IMG/VR virus record: IMGVR_UViG_3300046499_000591
Location: 15,198-79,197 of that record
DNA: 64,000 nucleotides
Source of the DNA: a virus
Strand: one strand, 5' to 3'
Within the stretch, counting starts at the first letter, position 1. Each line of letters opens with the position of its first letter. Below the pieces are notes generated by a model. It searched no databases, had not been told where the DNA came from, and worked only from the letters and a program-made list of their open reading frames with translations. A program made the position numbers and the translations under genes. This document shows, piece after piece, positions 4,364 to 31,401 of the stretch.

Positions 4364-4896
4364 GCGTCCAAGAAGCCCTCGACGGCATGTGCCGCTACTT
4401 CGGCGGCGACTACGACCCGCAGACCCGCACCTACCGCTCGTCCCCGCTGTCGAAATACGGCGTCGGTGTCGTGCGTCGGGCGTGGGGGAAACGCGACGAC
4501 CACGCCGACTACTTCTGGGGCCAGCCCCCCGGCTCCCGCACCGGTTGCCAGATCGTGGTGTTCATCCCCCGGCACTCCGAGCGGCGGATCACCGTCGGCG
4601 GCGAGCACGGCGGCATGAAGCAAGTCACCTACGAGGTGACGCTCAACTGCTACATCCGATCGAACAGCGGCTACGCCGAGGACGCCCAAGACGACGTCCA
4701 CGCCCTCCGTGACGCCCTCGTCGAACACATGCGGAAAGACCGCACCCTCGGCGGCGCGGTCTTCCAGGCCGGCGAGCACACCGACGGCGGCATGGACGGA
4801 ATCGACTTCCGATACGCCCAGCCCGAGACCAAGGCCGAACTCACCAAGTCGTTCCTCGAGATCACGTTCGCCGCGATCGAGTTCGTCAACGCCTGA
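4360..4896 (+). CDS. Head-tail completion / tail terminator-like protein
   Basis: GTGA overlap with the adaptor; LVEHMRKDRTLGG motif; synteny. Confidence 0.55.
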   Translation: MSVQEALDGMCRYFGGDYDPQTRTYRSSPLSKYGVGVVRRAWGKRDDHADYFWGQPPGSRTGCQIVVFIPRHSERRITVGGEHGGMKQVTYEVTLNCYIRSNSGYAEDAQDDVHALRDALVEHMRKDRTLGGAVFQAGEHTDGGMDGIDFRYAQPETKAELTKSFLEITFAAIEFVNA

Positions 4897-28437: not shown

Positions 28438-28779
28438 ATGAATCACCACATGATCAGGATTGCGGCCGGCGCCGTCCTCGCCGGCGCGCTCATTACCGGC
28501 TGTTCCAGCAGCGGCCCGACCGCCGACCAGAAGAGATACGCCGACGCCGCGGCGGCCGCCGACCCCGACGACTTCGGCGGGATGAAGACCGACGACCTCG
28601 CCGGCACCCTCGGGGACGAAGGCAAGGAGCTGTGCGACCAGTTGAAGAAGGGCTCGTACGCCGACGCCCTGGCGTACGCCAAGACCGGCTTCCCGGGGAA
28701 GCAAGCGGCCGCGCTCGTCGACGCCGCGGTGCTCGTCAACTGCCCGGACCAGAAGGGGAAGGTGCCGGCCGGATCGTAG
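28438..28779 (+). CDS. Lipoprotein
   Basis: Signal peptide with lipobox (LITG-C-SS); two further Cys that could form a disulfide. Confidence 0.75.
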   Translation: MNHHMIRIAAGAVLAGALITGCSSSGPTADQKRYADAAAAADPDDFGGMKTDDLAGTLGDEGKELCDQLKKGSYADALAYAKTGFPGKQAAALVDAAVLVNCPDQKGKVPAGS

Positions 28780-28797
28780 GCCGGCCCCGGAACGACC

Positions 28798-28828
28798 GAG
28801 CGCCCCCGGGGTACCTCCGGGGGCGCTC
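28798..28828. terminator. Hairpin between the lipoprotein gene and mini-array 1
   Basis: GAGCGCCCCCGG-GGTACCT-CCGGGGGCGCTC. Confidence 0.7.
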
Positions 28829-28830
28829 TG

Positions 28831-28921
28831 GGCCACAGCCCCGCGTGCGCGGGGAGCAGCGGTAGCCCGGTGGTCGACCTACAGTCTCCGCATGGGCCAT
28901 ACCCGACACGTCGGGTGGTGC
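28831..28921 (-). CRISPR. Type I-E-like single-spacer mini-array 1 (degenerate repeat - 33-nt spacer - canonical repeat)
   Basis: Minus strand: GCACC-ACCCGA-CGTG-TCGGGT-ATGGCCCA, spacer TGCGGAGACTGTAGGTCGACCACCGGGCTACCG, then CTGCT-CCCCGC-GCAC-GCGGGG-CTGTGGCC; both repeats have the 5+16+8 I-E geometry. Confidence 0.75.
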
Positions 28922-28996
28922 TCGACCGAGGAGAGGTGTATCTATCTAGGCGAAAGCACACCTGAAGTTGTTGCTTCGATGGTGCCTCGGTCGAGC
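28920..28996. ncRNA. Candidate structured RNA abutting mini-array 1
   Basis: 12-bp closing stem GCTCGACCGAGG/CCTCGGTCGAGC enclosing AGGTGT..GC-GAAA-GC-ACACCT and GAAG..CTTC helices. Confidence 0.45.
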
Positions 28997-29042
28997 GGTT
29001 CAACTATGGCACAGGCCGCTGACACCGTGCAGCCGAACCGGG

Positions 29043-29651
29043 TCACTCGATCGGGCGATGGGCGCGCCGGCACATCGTCCCGCGGCATCCCTGCCGGTAC
29101 CCGCACGGCCGGCCGCACCGGTCGCCGCCGACGCACAGCGCGACGGCGGCCTCGTCGAGGGCGGCCCTAAAGTCGTCGTCGCGGCGGGCGAGCCCGAACA
29201 CCTGGCCCGGGGTCACCTCGGCCCGGACGGCGGCCGCCTCGATGGTGGCGACGTCGCCGGCCGAGACCAGTTCGAGCACCTGCCGGCGCCGCTGCTCGGG
29301 GAACACGGCGTCGGCGGCCGTACGCCGGCGCGTACGGGAGTCGGCGTTGTGCCAGGCCAGGCAGTCATCGCACCCGCAGCCGAGGCGCCACAGCGTCGAC
29401 GGGGCGTAGCGGCTGTGGTCGAGGGCCGGCGGGTCGGTGTCGGCGGCGGCGATGAGGGCCGCGCCGGTCCATACCCGCCCTCGGCCGTCGGCGCCGGGCA
29501 CCCGTTCCCACTCGGCGCCGGGGAACCAGCCGCTGAGGACCAGGGTGTTCGTCGACGACACGGCCAGGCCGAGGAGTTCGGCGAGGTCGGCGGCGCGGTA
29601 CCGGGCGTCGGGGTCGATGCGGTCGACGACGCGGGCGAGGGGGTGGTCCAT
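29043..29651 (-). CDS. HTH + Cys/His zinc-binding protein between the mini-arrays
   Basis: GGGAGA RBS, ATG at 29651; YRAADLAELLGLAVSS HTH; LGCGCDDC..WH; second HTH-like segment; GYRQGCRGTMCRRAH. Confidence 0.75.
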   Translation of the reverse strand: MDHPLARVVDRIDPDARYRAADLAELLGLAVSSTNTLVLSGWFPGAEWERVPGADGRGRVWTGAALIAAADTDPPALDHSRYAPSTLWRLGCGCDDCLAWHNADSRTRRRTAADAVFPEQRRRQVLELVSAGDVATIEAAAVRAEVTPGQVFGLARRDDDFRAALDEAAVALCVGGDRCGRPCGYRQGCRGTMCRRAHRPIE

Positions 29652-29682
29652 GCTTCTCTCCCTGGGTATGGGGGTGTCTGCT

Positions 29683-29768
29683 GCGGTCACCTCCGCATGC
29701 GCGGAGCAGAATCCGGCTCCTCGGCGAGCAGCAGCCAAGGGCGATACCCCCGCGTTTGCGGGGAAGAG
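29683..29768 (-). CRISPR. Type I-E-like single-spacer mini-array 2
   Basis: Minus strand: CTCTT-CCCCGC-AAAC-GCGGGG-GTATCGCC, 28-nt spacer CTTGGCTGCTGCTCGCCGAGGAGCCGGA, then TTCTG-CTCCGC-GCAT-GCGGAG-GTGACCGC. Confidence 0.72.
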
Positions 29769-29816
29769 TTCGACGTCATGATGGCACACTCCGCCGGCAG
29801 CGGGCGGGGAACCGGG

Positions 29817-30032
29817 TCAGTCCTCGTTGTACAGCGACGGGAACGAGCGCCGGGCGACGCCGCCCGTGTAGGCGAGCATGTGGGCCGTCTCCGCCGGCGT
29901 CAACGGCCGTGGATCGCGGAGCCCTTCGGCGAGGCCGTCGGCGAAGCAGCGGCCCAGGTATTCCAGCGCGGCCCGGTCCCGCTCGGCGATGGTGGGCCCC
30001 ATGCCCAGGAGGCGGCGAAGGAGTCGATGCAT
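29817..30032 (-). CDS. Small hypothetical protein, first gene of the mini-array operon
   Basis: MHRLLRRLLGMGPTIAERD..., divergent from the XRE gene. Confidence 0.55.
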   Translation of the reverse strand: MHRLLRRLLGMGPTIAERDRAALEYLGRCFADGLAEGLRDPRPLTPAETAHMLAYTGGVARRSFPSLYNED

Positions 30033-30171
30033 GCCGGCAGCATCGCACGCCGCACCGACATCAGACCGTATGCGAAAGCCCCTCACGTCACAGGTACGTA
30101 AGGGGCGTTCGCAGTCTCCGCCCGGCCGGCCGGGGGTACCGTTCCTAGTGGACGCTAGGAATGGAGCCAGT

Positions 30172-31401
30172 ATGCCCCACTACGCCGACACCGGGGGGAG
30201 CGCAGAGAGCAACGGGCAGCGCCTTGCCCGCCTCCGTGCGCGCCACCGGTGGACTCAGCAACGCCTGGCAGATGAAGCCGGGTACTCTCTCGCAGCCGTG
30301 AAAGCCTACGAACAAGGGCGCCGCAGCCTGGACCGCCCCGCCGTGGTCCTCGCGTTCGCTCACGCCCTGGACTGCCATCCCACCGAGATCACCGGCGGCC
30401 CGTACTCGCCGGTGTCCACCGACACCGAGGGGCAGGTCGCCGTCGCGGCCGTCGCCGCGGTACGCCGCGCCCTGCTGCGGCACGGCCGCCCCACCAGGCC
30501 GGAGGAGCACGAGGTTGCCGCTGTCGACCTGCCGGAGCTACGGCGACGCGTCGCCGAGGGCAACGCCTTCCGCCAGGCCGCGGCTTTAGCGAAGTCCGGT
30601 CCCATCCTGCCCGCACTGCTCCGCGACCTCCAGGTGGCCGCCGAGGTGTGCGAGGGCGACCAACGCCGGGAAGCCTTCGGGCTGCTCTCGTCGGCGTACG
30701 AGTGCGCCATGCAGTACCTCTACAAGCTGGGCCACACCTCGGATGCCACCCTGGCGACCGAGCGGGTGCTGTGGTCCGCGCAGGAGTCCGGCGACCCGCT
30801 CCGCATCCTGGCCTCGCACTGGTACGACGCCGGGGAGTTCCTGTCGATCGGCGAGCACGACGAGGCCGGCGCCATCATCGACGACGCCCTGACCGAGCTG
30901 GGGACGGTCCGCGACCGTACGCCGGAGGTGGTGTCCCTGTGCGGCGCGTTCCTCCTCAAGGCATCGCTGAACTCGGCCCGCTCGGCGGACAACCGGGGCG
31001 CCGAGCAACACCTGGCGAAGGCGAAGACCGCGGCGGAGGAGCTGGGCGGCGACCGCAACGACTACCAGCTGCAATTCGGGCCGACCAACGTGGCCATCTG
31101 GGGTGTGTCCTTGCCGGTGGAGATGGGCAAGGGCCGCGTCGCCGTGGACCGGGCCGAGGGGGTGCGCCTGCCGGCGCAGTTCTCCCCGGAGCGGCACTCG
31201 CACCACTTCATCGACGTGGGCCGCGCGCACTTCTACAACGGGCAGCGCGAGGCGGCTATCGGCGCGTTCCTCAAGGCGGAGCGGCTGGCACCGCAGGCGA
31301 CCCGCATGCATGCCGGTGTGCGGGAGACCGTCGGCACGATGATCCGTACTCAGAAGCGCGGTGAGCTGGTGGAGTTGGGTATCCGGCTCGGCGTCGTGTG
31401 A
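30172..31401 (+). CDS. XRE-family HTH regulator with helical/TPR-like C-terminus
   Basis: GQRLARLRARHRWTQQRLADEAGYSLAAVKAYEQGRR HTH; FGPTNVAIW and ER.APQ motifs typical of Streptomyces XRE proteins; contains a TTA codon at 30586. Confidence 0.88.
   Translation: MPHYADTGGSAESNGQRLARLRARHRWTQQRLADEAGYSLAAVKAYEQGRRSLDRPAVVLAFAHALDCHPTEITGGPYSPVSTDTEGQVAVAAVAAVRRALLRHGRPTRPEEHEVAAVDLPELRRRVAEGNAFRQAAALAKSGPILPALLRDLQVAAEVCEGDQRREAFGLLSSAYECAMQYLYKLGHTSDATLATERVLWSAQESGDPLRILASHWYDAGEFLSIGEHDEAGAIIDDALTELGTVRDRTPEVVSLCGAFLLKASLNSARSADNRGAEQHLAKAKTAAEELGGDRNDYQLQFGPTNVAIWGVSLPVEMGKGRVAVDRAEGVRLPAQFSPERHSHHFIDVGRAHFYNGQREAAIGAFLKAERLAPQATRMHAGVRETVGTMIRTQKRGELVELGIRLGVV

Follow-up and report, generated by a model that had tools for sequence, protein, structure and literature searches.

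A viral DNA stretch of 64,000 nucleotides (IMG/VR virus record IMGVR_UViG_3300046499_000591, bases 15198-79197 of one 98,216-bp contig with 71% GC; called the window below) carries a cassette in which imitations of type I-E repeats, the repeats of one class of CRISPR (short palindromic repeats that are clustered and regularly interspaced), stand directly upstream of the gene of a helix-turn-helix (HTH) protein, P0001. The same arrangement is found in 14 further loci, and no cas genes of type I-E are present on the contig. In our analysis, the interpretation that ranks first, and that we hold to be about evenly poised between right and wrong, is that the cassette specifies a decoy or sponge RNA of the type of the known RNA anti-CRISPRs (Racrs) and Cracr arrays, which would be co-transcribed with P0001 as its DNA-binding partner. 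The cassette comprises two units: unit 1, with the repeats R1 and R2, lies ahead of the P0001 gene, and unit 2, with the pseudo-repeat R3 and the repeat R4, lies behind it.

Three of the four predicted repeats match type I-E repeats of Streptomyces

A first-pass annotation of the window had described four I-E-like repeats with a common hairpin and handle geometry. For comparison, genuine I-E repeats were collected from arrays adjoining cas6e in Streptomyces genomes, and a covariance model (CM) built from 19 genuine Streptomyces repeats only was used to scan both strands of the window with filters off. The top three matches in the 64 kb, which all came from the minus strand, were R4 (33.7 bits, E 5e-7), R2 (E 0.002, 21.2 bits), and R1 (E 0.007, 19.1 bits), each of them built of 5 nt, a 6-bp stem, a 4-nt loop, and an 8-nt handle. 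They were followed by reverse-strand echoes and then, at E 0.06, by unrelated sequence that is not a repeat. Plain identity to the genuine repeats was 26/29 for R4, a level at which it matches genuine repeats of two loci (L046 and L049), and 23/29 for R1, compared with a background maximum of 21/29 in a scan of the 98-kb contig. The stem type of R2 is also found in genuine arrays, namely in L059 and in the second array of L075. The features of an I-E repeat (about 29 nt, a GC stem of 6-7 bp, a 4-nt loop, and an 8-nt 3' handle) were thus found in R4, R2, and R1, and not in R3. R3 was detected neither by the CM (E > 10) nor by the identity scan; its handle, ATGGCCCA, recurs in a repeat of L073. 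Because R3 failed in both tests, the second "array" of the annotation consists of one solid repeat and one doubtful pseudo-repeat. The description of the repeats therefore stood for R1, R2, and R4, which also align to genuine repeats (R2 by CM), and had to be given up for R3.

Neither unit is a regular I-E array with near-identical repeats, a period of about 61 nt, and spacers of 32-33 nt. In unit 1, the period is 57 nt, the spacer S1 has 28 nt (23-31 nt in orthologues), and R1 differs from R2; in unit 2, the period is 62 nt, but R3 is doubtful. A search of Rfam gave no family at the gathering score and only noise at E <= 10, with no match to a model of I-E CRISPR direct repeats. Counts of the bare palindrome CCCCGC-N4-GCGGGG, with one mismatch allowed, were not lower than expected by chance and hence uninformative, and therefore the significance had to rest on the full repeat model. 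Among 151 sampled Streptomyces genomes, cas6e (PF08798) was detected in 67, and in one host (G026) repeats of the CCCCGC and CTCCGC types exist side by side.

Searches of the complete 98-kb contig gave no matches to cse1 (PF09481), cas6e (PF08798), or cas7e (PF09344), which extends the annotation's statement that the 64 kb lack a cas gene, and the adjacent cse1, cas7e, and cas6e of a type I-E CRISPR-Cas locus were not found anywhere on it. Thus, the repeats are mimics on a mobile element outside of a CRISPR-cas locus, as is characteristic of Racrs, and the view that Cas-less I-E repeat mimics reside on a mobile element was borne out.

The repeats are conserved ahead of one protein family

The P0001 family is rare. 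It is represented in 7 of 401 sampled Streptomyces genomes and by about 25 clusters below 1e-30 in a library of 1.8 billion proteins, and all of its members are annotated as hypothetical. In 14 loci beyond the window (L001, L004, L005, L006, L009, L066, L067, L068, L071, L072, L073, L074, L081, and L084), two to five I-E-like repeats with E values from 7e-9 to 4e-3 lie on the sense strand directly upstream of the P0001 homologue, with a conserved promoter-like box ahead of them and the ribosome-binding site behind. P0001 identity across the repeat-bearing loci goes down to about 41%. In addition, L082 has a single degenerate repeat copy ahead of the gene. The annotation had considered a protein partner possible; because repeats precede the P0001 family in 14 further loci and in one degenerate case, this link is far stronger than was apparent then. 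When the CM was applied to about 96 kb of homologous loci, where it gave two to five repeats per locus at E 1e-9 to 4e-3, the remaining matches that are not echoes were located only downstream of the L065 pseudogene or in L087, which has no P0001 gene. At the pseudogene locus L065 and at L083, the upstream flank of which is cut off, the repeats are found downstream of the gene instead. L007, a partial relative, has no repeats, and the loci of two stand-alone proteins consisting of the C-terminal module only also have none.

The idea that mini-arrays bracket this gene in its homologous loci held for unit 1 and not for the downstream unit. Unit 2 is specific to the window: it was found in no other locus, L073 lacks it, and exact-pattern scans of viral contigs revealed no second copy of the unit or of its 77-nt structured element.

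An alignment of 37 mini-array repeats showed that the 6-bp stem is paired in 97.7% of the cells, whereas in five slid controls of the same alignment the paired fraction fell to 42-67%. Three of the pairs exhibit CG-to-UA double changes, accompanied by U-G and G-U intermediates. A T at handle position 2 is conserved in at least 90% of the mini-array repeats and invariant in the genuine repeats. These data indicate that purifying selection on stem and handle is already apparent. The repeats within one mini-array differ from each other, and stems of the CCCCGC and CTCCGC types are often mixed. The spacers range from 2 to 45 nt, and insertions and deletions alter their lengths between orthologues. 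In the clade of the window, S1 forms a hairpin with the arms CCYUGG/CCARGG, in which covarying C-G, U-A, and U-G pairs could be read by eye.

The promoter-like box ahead of the first repeat is conserved in L001, L004, L006, L009, L066, L071, L072, L073, and L081. In most loci, its -10-like variants (TGTGCCAT(A/C)(G/A)TG, TGTGTCATAGTG, GCTACAGTG, or TGTGCAACAGTG) precede the first repeat by 8-13 nt, and this position suggests that the transcripts start at about the first repeat. In the window, the box occurs just twice, each time ahead of a repeat unit, and box 2, which precedes unit 2, is the same box as that ahead of the mini-arrays of L009, L072, and L066. A search of 390 kb of genuine I-E loci did not turn up the box; on these grounds, a captured CRISPR leader as its source was rejected for the loci searched.

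One mini-array exists without the gene. The viral contig IMGVR_UViG_2799112265_000001 (L087:128-255) carries three repeats with 20-nt spacers, the same promoter-like box, and a terminator-like closing hairpin. Solitary I-E-like repeats, one in each case and without a P0001 gene, were seen in three further high-GC viral contigs (L095:3148-3176, L086, and L090).

The distances between the end of the last handle and the start codon were recorded for the window, L004, L009, L066-L068, L071-L074, L081, L082, and L084, and amounted to 14, 15, 24, 26 (three times), 31 (three times), 32 (five loci), and 39 nt. Most of these values are within 1 nt of 6n+2, which corresponds to the binding step of Cas7 on type I CRISPR RNA (crRNA). 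With p of about 0.04 and about 8 independent lineages, this spacing is no more than suggestive.

On the S. mexicanus chromosome (L072:5500-6200), 0.9 kb downstream of the P0001 homologue, an open reading frame (ORF) encodes the N-terminal 45% of Cse1/Cas8e (PF09481 positions 2-203 of 450, E 2e-31), followed by unrelated sequence beside leuS. This partial Cse1 could be what is left of an I-E locus that was disrupted, or it could be a truncated form that travels with the module.

Searches for spacer targets

The annotation had suggested looking for targets of the spacers in phages, plasmids, and host cas promoters; none came to light. A local BLAST comparison of 30-odd spacers and post-repeat leaders with 656 kb of collected loci gave no excess over shuffled controls, and an ungapped seed scan of the spacers against 460 nt around 26 Streptomyces cse1 starts gave noise, with cas3 upstream regions and CRISPR leaders lying outside of this search. 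Against phage and plasmid collections, all matches of the two window spacers had E >= 0.1, and the spacers of L073 had no matches; the plasmid matches of L073 centre on its repeat, inside real plasmid-borne arrays. Matches of spacers to other phages or plasmids, which characterize targeting mini-arrays, were thus not observed.

In six host cas loci, no clear CreR-like solitary repeats were found at a level of at least 21/29. Between cas3 and cse1 of G100, about 370 nt upstream of cse1 (L078, ~4690-4760), there is a degenerate I-E-like hairpin, CCCCCGC-ATGC-GTGGGGG, followed by TGCCTTGC, which is a possible CreR-like element of the host. Several spacers from mobile elements start with a CTTG-type word. 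In G019, the sequence CTGTGCCATTCTCG, which resembles the mini-array promoter box, is located about 60 nt upstream of the host cse1 start (L105, ~1510-1525); this is a single case and may be due to chance.

The P0001 protein

P0001, which is rich in cysteine, starts with an N-terminal winged HTH, which is followed by a module (residues 82-200) made up of a Cys/His cluster, an HTH, and a second Cys/His cluster; the two clusters are possible zinc sites. The AlphaFold2 model has a mean predicted local distance difference test score of 83, and its fold matches, MerR/BldC-like proteins among them, are HTH regulators. A family of actinobacterial HTH proteins of about 130 aa matches residues 82-202. 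No Pfam family was assigned to P0001. On the basis of the model, P0001 is predicted to be a DNA-binding protein with two HTH modules.

Layout and genomic setting of the cassette

The features of the cassette are compiled in Table 1. The HTH gene with its Cys/His clusters, the 77-nt fold, and the closing hairpin, which had all been described in the first-pass annotation, were present.

Table 1. Positions of the cassette and its elements in the window.
Feature	Position	Strand	Evidence or remark
Whole cassette (both repeat units and the P0001 gene)	28784..29820	-	Inserted between a DUF732-like gene and the small ORF/XRE region
Promoter-like box 1, TGTGCCATCATG	29777..29788	-	Putative extended -10 type; ends 8 nt before R1
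R1, I-E-like repeat, CCCCGC/GCGGGG stem, handle GTATCGCC	29740..29768	-	CM, identity, homologous loci
S1, 28-nt "spacer", self-folding hairpin (CUUGGC...GCCGAG)	29712..29739	-	No protospacer found
R2, I-E-like repeat, CTCCGC/GCGGAG type, handle GTGACCGC	29683..29711	-	CM
Leader of 31 nt between the R2 handle and the ATG, with GGGAGAG ribosome-binding site	29652..29682	-	Highly conserved among close relatives
P0001 gene, 202 aa, HTH protein	29043..29651	-	Two conserved Cys/His clusters
Promoter-like box 2, TGTGCCATAGTT	29002..29013	-	Immediately past the P0001 stop codon
77-nt structured element, perfect 12-bp closing helix	28920..28996	-	Folding
R3, doubtful pseudo-repeat, rewritten ACCCGA/TCGGGT hairpin, I-E-like handle ATGGCCCA	28893..28921	-	Undetected by CM and identity
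33-nt R3-R4 spacer, canonical I-E spacer length	28860..28892	-	No phage or plasmid match with E < 1
R4, near-canonical Streptomyces I-E repeat	28831..28859	-	CM, identity
Closing hairpin of unit 2, GC-rich, 12 bp, no U-tract	~28797..28829	-	Folding

The boundaries follow from the plasmid locus L003, in which BLAST aligned the counterpart of window positions 28450-28783 fused straight to that of 29821-30189. In L003, the DUF732-like gene and the small ORF P0002 (29817-30032) are direct neighbours; hence, the cassette extends from 28784 to 29820, and P0002 lies outside of it. Indeed, L009 and L072 lack P0002, and L003 has a 72-aa counterpart of it but no cassette. The presence of two promoter-like boxes and the position of the small ORF outside of the cassette do not support the single operon, from small ORF to terminator, that had been proposed. 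Ahead of P0002, the window contains a degenerate copy of the promoter region at 30035-30060, GATGTCGGTGCGGCGTGCGATGCTG, and P0002 appears to have been inserted together with this duplicated promoter.

The RNA of unit 2 as a whole is far more stable than shuffled sequences (z = -6.2); the unit 1 leader as a whole does not fold beyond shuffles (z = -0.9). The two strands of the 77-nt element fold equally well, so that folding leaves its strand undecided. A consensus terminator scan made no call for the closing hairpin of unit 2.

The contig is classified as linear in IMG/VR and estimated by CheckV to be 89% complete. Genes near the cassette encode a GH25 lysozyme (endolysin), a GP88-family protein, a ParA ATPase, a methyltransferase, and a phage-type XRE-TPR regulator. 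Linear plasmids of Streptomyces and another viral contig carry the nearest DNA relatives of the cassette. The two ends of the contig (G000 bases 1-200 and 98017-98216) are near-identical, non-identical copies of one coding-like sequence, which points to gene duplication or to a repeat that collapsed where the assembly ends, and not to a clean circular overlap.

Comparison with known systems

The annotation did not recognize the arrangement as a described system; however, Racrs (PMC10651486) and the Cracr/AcrIF24 pairs (bioRxiv 10.1101/2024.10.29.618823) are a clear precedent. Racrs are solitary repeat units on phages and plasmids; Cas6 binds and cleaves them, and they seed aberrant filaments of Cas7 (Camara-Wilpert et al. 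2023, PMC10651486). Like them, the cassette is a Cas-less repeat mimic on a mobile element that has kept the Cas6 hairpin and the handle. I-E candidates have been reported among the Racrs, often beside acr/aca genes (PMC10651486), and R4, which has a promoter-like box and a closing hairpin to itself, resembles a typical unit of this solitary kind. In contrast to Racrs, as far as can be judged from the sequence, unit 1 is not a small RNA of its own but forms the leader at the 5' end of a protein-coding mRNA. It contains between two and five different repeats and is linked to a single gene family.

Cracr arrays include I-E examples with pseudo-spacers of 21-24 nt and show tight linkage to AcrIF24, an HTH protein (Liu et al., bioRxiv 10.1101/2024.10.29.618823). 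The cassette shares with them the multi-repeat organization on mobile elements, the degenerate repeats, and the shortened pseudo-spacers, and I-E Cracr arrays with two and three spacers have been reported. The conserved linkage to an HTH protein is also shared, and AcrIF24 itself is both an anti-CRISPR protein (Acr) and a regulator. However, the pseudo-spacers of Cracr-like regulators have matches of at least 9 bp, next to the protospacer-adjacent motif, in cas or creT promoters, whereas in the 26 cse1 upstream regions scanned here the spacers showed no enrichment of matches over shuffles. Moreover, the acrIF24 systems belong to I-F in proteobacteria, the cassette to I-E in Streptomyces, and P0001 is not known to be related to AcrIF24.

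Two further systems are related in part. Unit 2 is organized like CreA/CreR (Shmakov et al. 2023, PMC10120712), in that the first of the two repeats is degenerate and the second, beyond a spacer, is the better one, but CreA and CreR sit inside the cas loci of their hosts, and their promoter targets are known, whereas unit 2 is on a Cas-less mobile element and no target was found for it. The viral mini-CRISPR arrays involved in inter-virus conflict (Medvedeva et al. 2019, PMC6858448) are likewise short, Cas-less, and reliant on the host Cas proteins; they match rival viruses and have repeats identical to those of the host, whereas the cassette has no matches and its repeats differ from one another.

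A possible repeat-mimic decoy RNA and its alternatives

If the cassette encodes a decoy RNA, the course of events would be as follows. Transcription of unit 1 would start from the promoter-like box just before R1, and the P0001 mRNA would therefore begin with two imitation I-E repeats. Host Cas6e would bind to the repeat hairpins, cut after them, and stay on them, and the 8-nt handles would draw in Cas5 and Cas7. The irregular, target-less, and partly self-folded spacers would lead to useless or aberrant complexes, and thus the RNA would act as a decoy or sponge in the manner of Racrs and Cracrs. With its mixed CCCCGC and CTCCGC stems, one RNA might address more than one I-E variant. P0001 would be the obligate partner from the same transcript, most likely a regulator of the module or an Acr-Aca-like factor analogous to AcrIF24 beside the Cracr genes (Aca, anti-CRISPR-associated protein). 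Unit 2, with its own box, structured RNA, R3, 33-nt spacer, R4, and hairpin, would be a second small RNA of the same kind, specific to the window.

Judged by sequence, the features expected of a substrate of host Cas6e and Cascade are present, namely an intact hairpin, a conserved xTG..CC handle, and the sense orientation. The gene-less mini-array of L087 likewise points to an independent small RNA of this kind. A literature search found no description of an anti-CRISPR factor for Streptomyces type I-E. New in comparison with the known systems would be the conserved fusion of mimic arrays with the leader of a single protein family and the mixing of two I-E repeat types. Several observations weigh against a decoy. 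The Racrs and Cracrs known so far are small RNAs that have ends of their own, whereas unit 1 would be an mRNA leader; a pure decoy needs no strict linkage to one gene family; and the conserved hairpin of S1 is needless in a Cascade-bound guide. Sequence-family and fold searches detected no similarity of P0001 to known Acr or Aca proteins. Detectable cas6e is present in 4 of 6 hosts that carry the module, compared with a background of 44%, which is not a significant difference, and the sequencing runs that contain the cassette region are of rhizosphere or soil metagenome DNA only.

The alternatives, which are not mutually exclusive with a decoy or with each other, were ranked after it in the order of a Cas6e-gated switch, true guides, DNA operators, and decay. 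The repeats might control P0001 and not harm CRISPR at all, a role that we consider rather unlikely. Cutting by Cas6e at the last repeat would yield a handle-capped mRNA with a 5'-OH end and a short leader bearing the ribosome-binding site; loading of Cas5/Cas7 on this leader, or an altered stability, would set the translation of P0001, and the element would in this way read out whether its host has active I-E Cas proteins. Such a role would agree with the location of the repeats in the leader with no terminator ahead of the gene, with the end of the last handle, which in all loci is 14-39 nt ahead of the start codon, with the strict linkage to one family while repeat number and spacers turn over, and with the stand-alone relatives of the C-terminal module that have no repeats. 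The reported higher stability of Cas6-made 5'-OH ends than of triphosphate ends (PMC10651486) also speaks for it. However, two of the host genomes bearing the module have no detectable cas6e, the repeats of L083 and L065 lie downstream of the gene, and R4 and the gene-less L087 array would be left unexplained. To our knowledge, there is also no precedent for an mRNA leader gated by Cas6e. That the repeat leader is a sensor, with Cas6e and Cas5/Cas7 loading switching the P0001 output according to the CRISPR status of the cell, is in our view unlikely; if this were the case, CRISPR-repeat mimicry would be a regulatory input and not a decoy alone. We regard it as decidedly unlikely that the crRNA-like RNAs are working guides that steer host Cascade to a cas promoter, as Cracr and CreR do, or to a rival mobile element. 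The canonical 33-nt spacer of unit 2 would give a 62-nt crRNA, L066, L068, L073, and L084 have spacers of 30-33 nt with a period of 59-62 nt, and I-E Cracr arrays with two or three pseudo-spacers are known from phages and plasmids (bioRxiv 10.1101/2024.10.29.618823), but no spacer gave a match above shuffles in the 656 kb, around the 26 cse1 starts, or in the phage and plasmid collections. The variation of spacers from 2 to 45 nt, with insertions and deletions that shift the lengths in orthologues (23, 28, and 31 nt), and the self-pairing of S1 are likewise at odds with guides.

The palindromes might also act at the DNA level, as operators or roadblocks for P0001 or for the neighbouring XRE regulator; in a bolder form of this explanation, P0001 would recognize I-E repeat DNA and occupy host CRISPR arrays too. 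We judge this very unlikely, even though P0001 is modelled as a DNA-binding protein with two HTHs and all three leader hairpins are inverted repeats in the DNA. A further point in its favour is an antisense repeat that overlaps the promoter region of L006 and half of which, GTCGGCGGGG, has been kept in other loci. This third repeat of the S. prunicolor locus (L006:2120-2142, CM E 8e-4) covers the -35 region of the mini-array promoter, and the half retained elsewhere (window 29789-29800) is located just upstream of the promoter box. However, G-U and U-G states of the stems (in L071, L074, and L082, and in S1 of the window and of L071) keep the RNA pairing and break the DNA symmetry, and because the stems keep such states, RNA pairing is favoured over a DNA operator. 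In addition, conservation extends to the asymmetric 3' handle and to the sense orientation, neither of which an operator would need. Finally, the repeats might have no function and be decaying fragments of captured CRISPR arrays that hitch-hike beside the gene, as their degeneracy, their mutual differences, the irregular spacers, and the barely recognizable R3 might suggest. This appears highly improbable: the arrangement persists across proteins that are only about 41% identical, compensatory changes repair the hairpins, and the promoter-like box is conserved and was not found in the 390 kb of genuine I-E loci.

Significance

Type I-E is the common CRISPR-Cas type in Streptomyces. If the cassette does encode a decoy RNA, it would be a compact and conserved RNA inhibitor candidate, perhaps with a protein component, for actinobacterial I-E systems, and the new HTH family might serve as a marker for more such modules, as acrIF24 served for the Cracrs. 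It would also present natural repeat mimics fused to an mRNA leader, and with them the idea that Cas6 processing gates the expression of mobile elements. In Streptomyces that produce antibiotics, the cassette could then be of practical use for turning off the native I-E systems or for constructing leaders that respond to Cas6e.

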